A stretch of DNA of 38,218 nt. Source: Sulfurospirillaceae bacterium (lineage in GTDB: Bacteria > Campylobacterota > Campylobacteria > Campylobacterales > Sulfurospirillaceae). The stretch lies in NCBI GenBank assembly GCA_033723415.1, contig JAWVXD010000013.1:1-38218 (forward strand), in the 5' to 3' direction. Numbering within the stretch: the first letter of the stretch is position 1; each line of letters begins with the position of its first letter. Positions 33,001 through 36,000 of the stretch are shown here, one piece after another. Position numbers: made by a program.

Positions 33001-36000
33001 TCAAATCATTATAGCAAAATGCAGGGATAAAATTTTCCTCAAACCACCTTTGATCTTTTTACGCATAGTTTTCTCTAGATATTTTTTCTATGTATCACTT
33101 TGGATCTAAAAAATCAAAAACTTGGCTTTCTGTCACAACAATATCAATATCAAATGATTTTCTATTATGAAAATGAAATATAGATAAAGCAGTTCCACCT
33201 CCAAAAATTCACCAGTTTTTTTAGACTTACATGTCGCTAGATAGGTTTGATAAGCTTATAATAAACACTATCGCTTCTTCCAAGGATAAGAAGAAAATTT
33301 ATAAAATGGTGTGAATTGAAAAAATAAACTCAGCCATTTATAACTATATATTAGTCAAAATCTGTATTTATTTTTCAATTTTTATACCACTTTTTTGTAA
33401 CAAATCTCTATATAGCATTGATTCACCACTTGAACCTGGTTTATAATTGTCTGGTGTAAAATCTTCATCATTAATATTTATTTTGTTTAAAACTGTCAAA
33501 AACTGCTCTTTTGAGAGAACATCTCCAAAAGTTCCAAGATGTAGATATAATGGCTTTAAAAAGCGCATCAAAGCTTTAAAACCATTTGTTTTATTTAGGA
33601 TTAACCCTTGACCATTAAATTCCCATGCTACATTCCATCTTTCTCGTACAGCATCAAAATAATTCCAAATAATATCTGTAATTTCTAAATCTTTTTCTTC
33701 AATAAATAGATTTCTGAATATTGTTTTTTCAAGCTTATTTCTGTCTTTTTCCAATGGAGGTTTTTCACCTTTTAAATATATCGTTCTATCATTTCCTGCA
33801 TCAAGTGTTATGTATTTTAATAATGCTTCAACAAATGTTGCTTGCGTAAGAGTTTCATTCAGACGCCCTTTTGTTGCACTTCCAAGTCGTTTGATCCGTT
33901 GATAGAAAGGACTTTTTTCATGTTGATCAAGGGCAACAGCGATATTATGACAGAGTTTTTGAGGACTTCTTGCTTTTGCTAAATCATAAAGATCGTAAAC
34001 TAAACTTTTATTGACTTTTGTTTGAGCTAAATTTACAGTTGAAAATAAAAAAGCTTCTTCCGCAATATCTATATCAACAAAGATACTAACATTTATCTCA
34101 AAATCACCATTTGTATATTCTCTTAATCCTTCTATACGATGTTGTCCATCTAGAACTTTTGCAATGCGATCTACATCAATATTATTTGCAAAATCTTCAT
34201 CATCTCTGTAGTTTTTCAAAATCATTTGATTTTTGGATTCATCAAACTCTGCACATTTACTACTAATAGATAAGATTACAGCTGTTGGGAAACAAGCATC
34301 AGGTGATTTTGTATATTGAATAATTTCTTTTACTCGTTTTTCTTGAAGAGGTCTTTGTATCCCCAAATAAGATTCAAATCCTCGCTCTTCTCCTTCTATT
34401 CTTCTGACATCTGAGAATGTTATTTCTCGCAAAATTTTAGAGTTTATAGAAGCAATATAAAATTCACCAATAGGCTGTGTTACTTTAATACAAGGTACTA
34501 TTTTTTCAAATGGATAGACGATATTTTGTTGCATTTTTATTCCTTCATCTGTGTTTATTAACTTGTTCTAAAAAATCATTTTCACTATTGCGCATAGTAT
34601 TTGATGGATCTGGCATTAAGCTATTATGAATTACTAGAGCAAAATACATAATTACAACAGAAGTTATATAAAAACCTATTGAAACATTTATCCAAGGTTG
34701 ATTTATAGTCATATTGTTTGTTCTCTGAGATATTATAATTATTGTTTCAAAAATCGTAATTATTAAAGTTACCCAAATAAAGAAATGTTTAAAATAAAAA
34801 CGTTTATTTTCTTCTCTATCCTTTATTGCTAAATAAAAAATTGGAGCTAATGTAGTTGCAGCATAAATAAATAATTCACCATTATGTACTAACAGAAAAA
34901 ACCTATCTAAAGAAAAAATATCACTTGTTTTAGAAGATAAAAAGAAATATAAACCCCATAATGGTAATGTAGAAATCATCAACGAATAAAACAGCTCAAT
35001 AAAAGAGTTTTTAAAAATTTGGAAATTAACATTCAGGTCTTGCATACTTTATCCTTGAATTAAATATTCTTTGCTTTTCCCTCTAGCGTTCGCATTACCT
35101 GCTATCACGCTATGCCTTTCAACAGTTGTAATATGAAAATCTTTTTCATATAATTCTCGAATTGATTGGTGATGTGCATTAGTTAACATAATTTTCACTC
35201 CTCGTAATTTAGCTTCTAATAATATGTGATGCAATCTTTCTTGGTCACTCCATTCAAATAATACTTCATTGTACTTAACAAAACCATTGTTATCATGTTT
35301 AACAGTATAAGGTGGATCAACAAAAAGAAAATCATCTTCTTTTGCCATGGCAATTGTTTGTTCAAAATCTAAATTTAAAATTTTTGTATTTTTCAAACGA
35401 TTAGAGATTTCTTGAAAATTATCACTATTTAATATTACATTTGTTTTTGTACCTATTGGCACGTTAAACTCGCCTTTTTTATTTACCCTGTATAGTCCAT
35501 TCCAACAAGTTCTATTTAAATATATAAATTTTGCAGCTGATGTAAAAATAGATTTCGTTTTTTTTGATCTCATGTAATAATAAAAATCCCTATTATGTTT
35601 TGTATGATACTTAATTAATAATTTTTCTACTTTTCCCCAATCTTCTTGAATAGCTTTATATGTATTTATCAGGTCTGTATTCATATCAGAGATAATTGCT
35701 TGTTTTGGATTTTTATTAAAATATACAGCCCCACCTCCAACAAATGGTTCTATATAATTATTAAATTTTTCTGGAAAAAGATTAGCATAATTTACAGTTA
35801 ACCACCTCTTCCCTCCAGCCCATTTTAAAAATGGAACGAGGTTTGTATTCATGTATTGAGATATCTCCTTATCCAACTTAAATTAACTATCTTTTATCTA
35901 TTTCAACCAGTTTTATAGCTTTATAAATTTTATTTCAAATCATTATACCAAATTAGAAAAAGAAAATTTAATTTTTGCTAAAAATTTAGATTATTTTTCT

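Follow-up and report, generated by a model that had tools for sequence, protein, structure and literature searches.

A membrane protein and a DGQHR protein form the fixed core of a widespread module that carries exchangeable adenine methylases and probably serves defense

A multipass membrane protein and a DGQHR protein form the fixed unit of a module in which the accompanying adenine methylase is swappable. The module is widespread and apparently undescribed, and it probably serves defense. The copy studied here lies in a 38,218-nucleotide stretch of a Sulfurospirillaceae genome (contig JAWVXD010000013.1, positions 1 to 38,218; the window) as a minus-strand operon in which a methylase gene (35049–35852) is followed by the gene for a four-helix membrane protein (34545–35045) and that for the DGQHR protein (33368–34534). 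The operon is real and apparently imported; its existence, claimed in a preliminary description, is confirmed by the open reading frames, by intergenic gaps of 3 and 10 nt, and by the families of the products, and each of the three genes is single-copy in the genome. The family spans many phyla. At E ≤ 1e-40 the relatives of the DGQHR protein form 4401 clusters at 90%, a count made at a different threshold from the earlier 4286 at E ≤ 1e-60, and those of the membrane protein form 1914 clusters at 50%. Literature searches outside subscription journals and some preprint supplements returned no description of the module, and apparently no catalogued system fits it.

The evidence for a fixed pair comes chiefly from two collections of loci. 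The genome loci, the best 80 of 334 confirmed, were found by an alignment-based scan, single-protein patterns being too poorly conserved, and the metagenome loci are the best 80 of 365; some loci recur between the collections (e.g. L016/L134 and L021/L139). In 78 of the 78 genome loci with room for one, the DGQHR gene is immediately preceded by a hydrophobic ORF, which reproduces the count given in the preliminary description, and in 71 of these 78 the ORF matches the window membrane protein (P0002), P0004, or P0005 by BLAST at E < 1e-3. The pair is present in 75 of the 76 metagenome loci with room and in 19 of the 19 viral loci with room at an identity of at least 42% (20 of the 32 viral loci). 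In a control sample made up of plasmid loci and a 401-genome phylum set (30 of whose 37 DGQHR places were recovered as loci), a gene with two to four transmembrane (TM) helices lies upstream of every DGQHR protein that scores above 110 bits to the family profile, versus 0 of 24 where the best score is 70 bits or less. Tree distances across 57 complete cassettes correlate more strongly between the DGQHR and membrane proteins (Mantel, 0.64) than between the DGQHR protein and the methylase (0.25).

The three genes had been described as a fixed cassette, and although the pair is fixed, the methylase is not. A Dam-type gene is found in 59 of the 80 genome loci, upstream in 45 and moved downstream in 14 (8 of these on the opposite strand), and unrelated methylases replace it in 15 loci (nine MT-A70 and six long D12 enzymes). 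The methylase had been placed in 63 of the 80 loci; the Dam-type enzyme itself is counted in 59, and with the 15 different enzymes an adenine methylase of one of three classes is adjacent or near in 74. Six loci carry none, four of them cut by contig ends. The 80 metagenome loci divide into 49 with a Dam-type gene, 5 with MT-A70, 2 with long D12, 4 with room but no methylase, and 20 that are cut; the cut loci include one in which a nuclease accompanies an N6/N4 methylase and another that carries an MmeI gene. Loci with room yet no methylase (2 of 80 in genomes, 4 of 80 in metagenomes) count against a mechanism in which a methylated site is read. On the FastTree tree, from which the swap count is taken (the IQ-TREE run was a quick tree), the methylase labels change at least 13 times, near the maximum of 15, and DGQHR proteins that are 79–82% identical pair with different methylases. 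All replacement enzymes belong to amino-methylase classes, with no m5C enzyme seen. After correction, no column of the DGQHR or membrane protein alignment tracks methylase class, a result that fits a sequence-blind signal equally well. In the reverse test, 5 of the 401 genomes sampled have a member of the window's methylase clade (E ≤ 1e-55), and a DGQHR gene adjoins it in all 5; 3 have the membrane pair (one being the center genome, by construction) and 2 a nuclease-DGQHR-HEPN fusion.

The window methylase (267 aa), the exchangeable and putatively self-marking part, is a Dam/DpnM-type D12 N6-adenine DNA methyltransferase (PF02086, E 2e-53; TIGR00571, 249 bits against a cut-off of 114.85). Its nearest solved relative is DpnM (E 1e-47), and E. 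coli Dam matches at E 2e-28. The DPPY motif reported earlier is borne out in the window protein, and a DPPY-type motif is present in 57 of 57 full-length members of the clade. The recognition hairpin of Dam/DpnM, whose residues have defined roles in Dam, is largely kept; it is near-constant in 52 of the 57 members and differs from Dam at two places. Because the clade keeps this near-constant hairpin, GATC, which is also the core of the BglII and BstYI sites, is the likely target as judged from sequence. GATC is not depleted in the cassettes (815 seen versus 797 expected) and only mildly so in the host (O/E 0.90), which counts against site-reading, and a motif-avoidance test over 59 + 15 cassettes yielded no candidate site. 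The G000 genome shows strong avoidance of GGCC (O/E 0.36) and weaker avoidance of CGCG (0.60), with GATC near expectation. Three same-genus loci (L270–L272) encode a more distant Dam-type methylase, 38–39% identical to that of the window, and neither the membrane gene nor the DGQHR gene lies in the flanking 1.5 kb.

The DGQHR protein (388 aa), the putative sensor, is modeled with a ParB/sulfiredoxin-fold N-domain (about residues 10–175), intact in its motifs, and a helical C-domain. In this model (pLDDT 83.9) the N-domain matches PadC (Z 8.7, rmsd 3.0, 99 aligned), Srx (Z 6.9), and KorB (Z 6.4), and ParB/Srx-type proteins fill the top eight rows of structural matches. The DGQHR motif is found in 80 and an FxxxN-type motif in 78 of the 80 genome loci. 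PF14072 is the only Pfam family matched at E ≤ 1, and TIGR03187 is matched at 216 bits, over its cut-off. No structural match of the helical C-domain exceeds Z 4.1; the relevant section of the Menshen paper argues that such domains, DndB's included, bind DNA, and describes the ParB-DUF262 domains of SspE and GmrSD as sensors of modification (PMC12065111). A DndB-like protein other than the window's is stated to bind ATP and GTP in the part of the preprint that describes it (10.1101/2025.10.10.680097).

The membrane protein (166 aa), the putative effector, is predicted to have both termini inside, as indicated by its K/R charge bias, and its model shows four confident helices (pLDDT 92.9). The family conserves polar residues within the membrane and aromatic residues on the predicted cytoplasmic face, with no catalytic motif among them. 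No family of Pfam, NCBIfam, PADLOC, or PHROGs covers the protein; in agreement with the earlier statement that PADLOC holds no family for it, the window protein gave none, and SLATT-type matches to PADLOC-DB 2.0 were weak, affecting 5 of 81 members with nothing below E 0.0015. Searches of protein atlases returned unnamed clusters only. Fold searches of the model retrieved generic helical bundles (best Z 7.7) and no recognizable pore fold, which counts against the mechanism proposed below, although a structural relative of this protein, or of the DGQHR C-domain, may have escaped such searches. The window protein departs from its family at two positions, where 150 relatives have P 84 (95%) and Y 139 (92%); this reflects either a divergent copy or a shift in the alignment.

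The DGQHR domain also occurs in a second architecture. Fusion proteins of ~780–790 aa combine a weak match to a PD-(D/E)XK nuclease domain, a DGQHR domain, and, by eye, a C-terminal HEPN-like motif (L008:4212-6530, L027:4162-6522, L041:1745-4126, L073:10174-12456, L113:793-3189, and L116:793-3147). The fusion uses the methylase clade of the pair, either alone or together with the pair, and in four genome loci one methylase is common to both. Because this Dam-type clade also partners the fusion, DGQHR is suggested to be a sensor with exchangeable effectors.

A third setting involves DNA phosphorothioation. In a 401-genome sample of an order with a housekeeping Dam (6 of 6 tested members), more distant hits occur in 8 genomes. 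Four of these hits, analyzed with wide flanks, and the hit of the center genome lie in dnd-type clusters with no adjoining methylase; for three, the analysis covered 1.5 kb on each side. One dnd-linked copy, L265, is a true relative: its DGQHR protein is 41% identical to that of the window, its TM protein scores 64.7 bits to the family profile, and the pair, located between dndBCDE and dptH, branches sister to the methylase-linked clade. The statement that the module occurs without dnd genes accordingly stands for the core clade, with none beside the window cassette and no recurring dnd or dpd family in the 80 genome loci, but not for the homologous pair at L265. L265–L268 carry different TM + DGQHR pairs in one slot between a dptH-type gene and dndE, which suggests that this slot is a variable cassette position in dnd clusters. 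One study indicates that Dnd and Dam can share GATC and that a methyl mark can replace a sulfur mark (PMC6435447).

Taken together, these features allow us to propose, at somewhat less than an even chance, a mobile abortive-infection module that reads a self-mark, probably of GATC type, and acts through a membrane effector, each functional step being one that we infer. The methylase, whose enzyme class is plain, would mark host DNA with N6-methyladenine, the target being probably a GATC-type site. The DGQHR protein, which has a ParB-type fold, would be an NTP-binding dimer with a helical DNA-binding domain that reads whether such sites are marked. Unmarked replicating DNA of an invader, or loss of host marking, would switch the DGQHR protein to activate its membrane partner, and the co-evolving four-helix protein would then depolarize or permeabilize the membrane so that infection is aborted. 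Methylases could swap because any enzyme marking the same kind of site would serve. The swap pattern calls for a site common to all the enzymes or for a signal that is blind to sequence. Two observations favor the shared site: recruitment of MT-A70 took place in hosts that already possess a CcrM-type m6A methylase (RAMA match in 5 of 5; CcrM model at E ≤ 1e-184 in 3 loci, with four ORFs scanned), and a nuclease fold is part of the sister architecture. A literature search for an MT-A70-type enzyme that methylates GATC returned no paper. The role of DndB, a characterized relative that binds its own promoter and acts as a transcription repressor according to the passages on its regulation (PMC6435447), counts against the proposal that the DGQHR protein reads a self-mark.

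It is also conceivable, if unlikely, that the membrane protein is an anchor only and that the DGQHR protein is itself the effector, a nuclease or NTPase that intercepts incoming unmarked DNA at a SNIPE-like location. The ParB superfamily includes nucleases and NTPases, as the sections bearing on it report (PMC10853773), the DGQHR protein has a weak structural match to Osa (Z 3.7), and SNIPE offers a precedent (PMC13190303). However, where a nuclease is needed, members of the DGQHR family gain an extra PD-(D/E)XK domain, and four helices with conserved intramembrane polar residues exceed what an anchor requires.

The neighborhood of the module bears on a further alternative to self-mark reading. 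A BglII-family nuclease lies beside some MT-A70 and long-D12 copies (4 of the 80 genome loci), and one plasmid copy sits behind a BglII-family nuclease, a C-type regulator, and a methylase. The pair might guard a neighboring modification system, sensing not the DNA itself but a phage protein or a condition that inhibits the methylase or restriction enzyme (a DNA mimic or SAM depletion), and killing the cell as a second line. Loci that join a BglII-family nuclease and a methylase (L039, L070, L077, L084, L175, L198, and L091), a type I HsdS at L028, and dndBCDE/dptH at L265 would suit such a guard. In most loci, however, the methylase stands alone and there is no nuclease that could be guarded; neither the window nor the majority of Dam-type loci encodes an endonuclease, and because the partner enzymes are structurally unrelated there is no common protein surface to guard. 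We regard a guard as improbable, though a little less so than direct interception.

Signs of mobility surround the module, and they fit the proposed abortive-infection role. Four genome loci lie beside repressor genes of prophages, three of them also near tail genes, and six plasmids carry close DGQHR relatives, with the full module in both of the two that were opened. Among 77 chosen neighbor proteins that were scanned are products of integrase, transposase, HNH, PLD, SIR2, and Fic genes; many further neighbors are housekeeping genes such as uvrB. The uvrB gene adjoins the module in seven alphaproteobacterial loci (L042, L053, L057, L058, L070, L073, and L079), a possible insertion hotspot. 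A 190–275-aa protein without a Pfam family recurs just downstream of the DGQHR gene (L027:9067-9894, L061:9167-9838, L076:3554-4129, and, by eye, L133:7926-8630) and is possibly an accessory effector. Directly downstream of the cassette at L040:9236-10495 lies a MazG-like + GGDEF protein. Searches with one cassette by blastn against E. coli genomes gave no match, and tblastn against phage records gave 23% matches only. The preliminary description had cast the module as a modification-sensing defense system; the prophage, plasmid, and restriction-modification contexts and the sister with a swapped effector speak for that view, whereas the three-gene fixity does not hold up and the absence of dnd genes holds for the core clade only.

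In the window, the cassette is low in GC (28.4% versus 34.5% for the genome), as low as only 13 of 965 2.5-kb windows. A 2.9-kb low-GC segment is flanked by two copies of a 15-bp direct repeat, one upstream (35933–35947), which contains a minus-strand TATAAT hexamer that precedes the methylase, and one downstream (32999–33013). The repeat has exactly two copies genome-wide, whereas shuffled 15-mers average 0.1. The segment is possibly an insertion scar, a suggestive reading given that a chance repeat is conceivable in AT-rich DNA. Within it, translation of a short stop-bounded stretch on the minus strand (approximately 33099–33209) gives a GGTAL...H..S.DID pattern, which we take to resemble the start of an AbiEii-type nucleotidyltransferase; the peptide is probably a decayed fourth or passenger gene. 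The DGQHR gene is found in 0 of 13 same-genus genomes, with weak distant matches only in 2 of 40 relatives, and the module in 2 of 400 phylum genomes besides the center genome. Such patchiness, together with its accessory slots in prophages, argues against a role outside defense, with the DGQHR protein as a DndB-like regulator of methylase expression that takes input from the membrane or the cassette as a selfish addiction module. DndB does repress its own promoter in the passages cited (PMC6435447), and a toxin from which a methylase protects would be addictive, but the methylase is often replaced or lies downstream on the opposite strand (8 loci), and we judge such a role very unlikely.

As claimed earlier, no PADLOC system matches the module as a whole, and on the features tested it does not belong to TIGR04172, DndB, DpdB, the DUF262 systems, type II restriction-modification, or Metis II. 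The closest named family is TIGR04172, the "DNA phosphorothioation-associated DGQHR protein 1" (E 2e-62 over the full length), a Dnd satellite family in the relevant part of its source (PMC3226654). Its members share a coupled gene with two to four TM helices directly upstream, of the same size and position as here, but with an hhalign probability of only 0.8% (E 0.074; six-sequence profile). The window protein scores 211.5 bits and five relatives 174–192 bits against the family cut-off of 450, and TIGR04172 is linked to Dnd or CxC-ATPase loci, whereas the present module is linked to methylases. DndB and DpdB belong to the same DGQHR superfamily (PADLOC DpdB, E 9e-26, partial), but the window protein is far below their equivalog cut-offs and they lack an upstream TM gene. 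Type II restriction-modification systems (DpnII/Dam and the BglII/BstYI family) share the DpnM-like methylase, but here the membrane + DGQHR pair takes the place of the endonuclease.

SspE, GmrSD/BrxU, Menshen NsnA, and Dazbog share with the DGQHR protein a ParB-fold NTP domain with QR/DGxxR/FxxxN motifs followed by a helical domain, and Menshen also occurs with solitary methylases. These ParB-DUF262 sensors carry PF03235 and nuclease effectors, whereas the present module carries PF14072, and the excerpts of their papers describe no membrane partner for them; a cytosine methylase from a phage is the trigger of Dazbog (10.1101/2022.08.27.505566). Membership in Dazbog, GmrSD, SspE, or Menshen was rejected, as no DUF262 (PF03235) is found at E ≤ 1 and no PADLOC model of these systems matched. 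A DndB pair at a P2 hotspot, in the section of PMC9122126 that presents it, joins DndB to a GIY-YIG protein and is a different system. Likewise unrelated (E 0.2), with no Pfam or NCBIfam match, is a pair of a 385-aa soluble and a 177-aa membrane protein at a P4-like hotspot (L171:679-2370). This pair may resemble Kiwa.

The closest functional precedent, missed in the preliminary description, is Metis type II (MisB-MisC), whose small unannotated 3-TM effector depends on adenine methylation, being Dam-dependent and triggered by m6dAMP (10.1101/2025.11.05.686725). Its partner is a HAD phosphatase, whereas here it is a ParB-fold protein, the Metis text mentions no DGQHR gene, and Metis type III as drawn consists of MisA and a methylase. 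The module could plausibly combine sensing of the SspE type with killing of the Metis II type. Alternatively, it could sense danger as Metis does: the methylase would seed the genome with m6A, and degradation of host DNA by phage would release a methylated nucleotide or short oligonucleotide that opens the membrane protein. In the dnd-linked sister the signal would be a phosphorothioate dinucleotide, and the DGQHR protein would be a receptor or an enzyme that clears basal signal. Variants that themselves encode a methylase are foreseen by the Metis authors (10.1101/2025.11.05.686725). The restriction of replacements to amino-methylases, the different methylases beside DGQHR proteins that are 79–82% identical, the four hits with wide flanks but no adjacent methylase in the order with housekeeping Dam, and the cytoplasmic-face aromatics would all be in keeping with such a signal. 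Yet neither a HAD phosphatase nor a MisA-type gene is a recurrent neighbor of the module, and no HAD family was found among the scanned neighbors; hosts with CcrM would already release m6dAMP but keep or newly recruit a methylase; fusion of DGQHR to a DNA nuclease fold in the sister suits DNA sensing; and the E. coli MisC homolog, inspected visually as printed, does not show the motifs of the membrane protein family. Danger sensing of this kind, the main rival of the proposed mechanism, seems to us rather unlikely.

Overall, in the proposed self-mark-reading module a ParB-fold switch would link self-marking in the manner of restriction-modification to a membrane effector, without a nuclease. 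A broader idea, which we hold with considerable doubt, is that the pair serves as a plug-in suicide device for reading self-marks of any chemistry, m6A from three unrelated enzyme classes and phosphorothioate in the sister, by way of a shared GATC-type site or of released modified nucleotides. The three-gene cassette is easy to clone and would make it possible to test what proteins of the DGQHR/DndB family sense, and also to test the self-methylase Metis variants, which have been predicted but not shown. If the broader idea is true, DGQHR domains are a general sensor of modified DNA wired to exchangeable effectors, a membrane pore in one case and a nuclease-HEPN protein in another, and the long-unexplained TIGR04172 satellites would gain a function.
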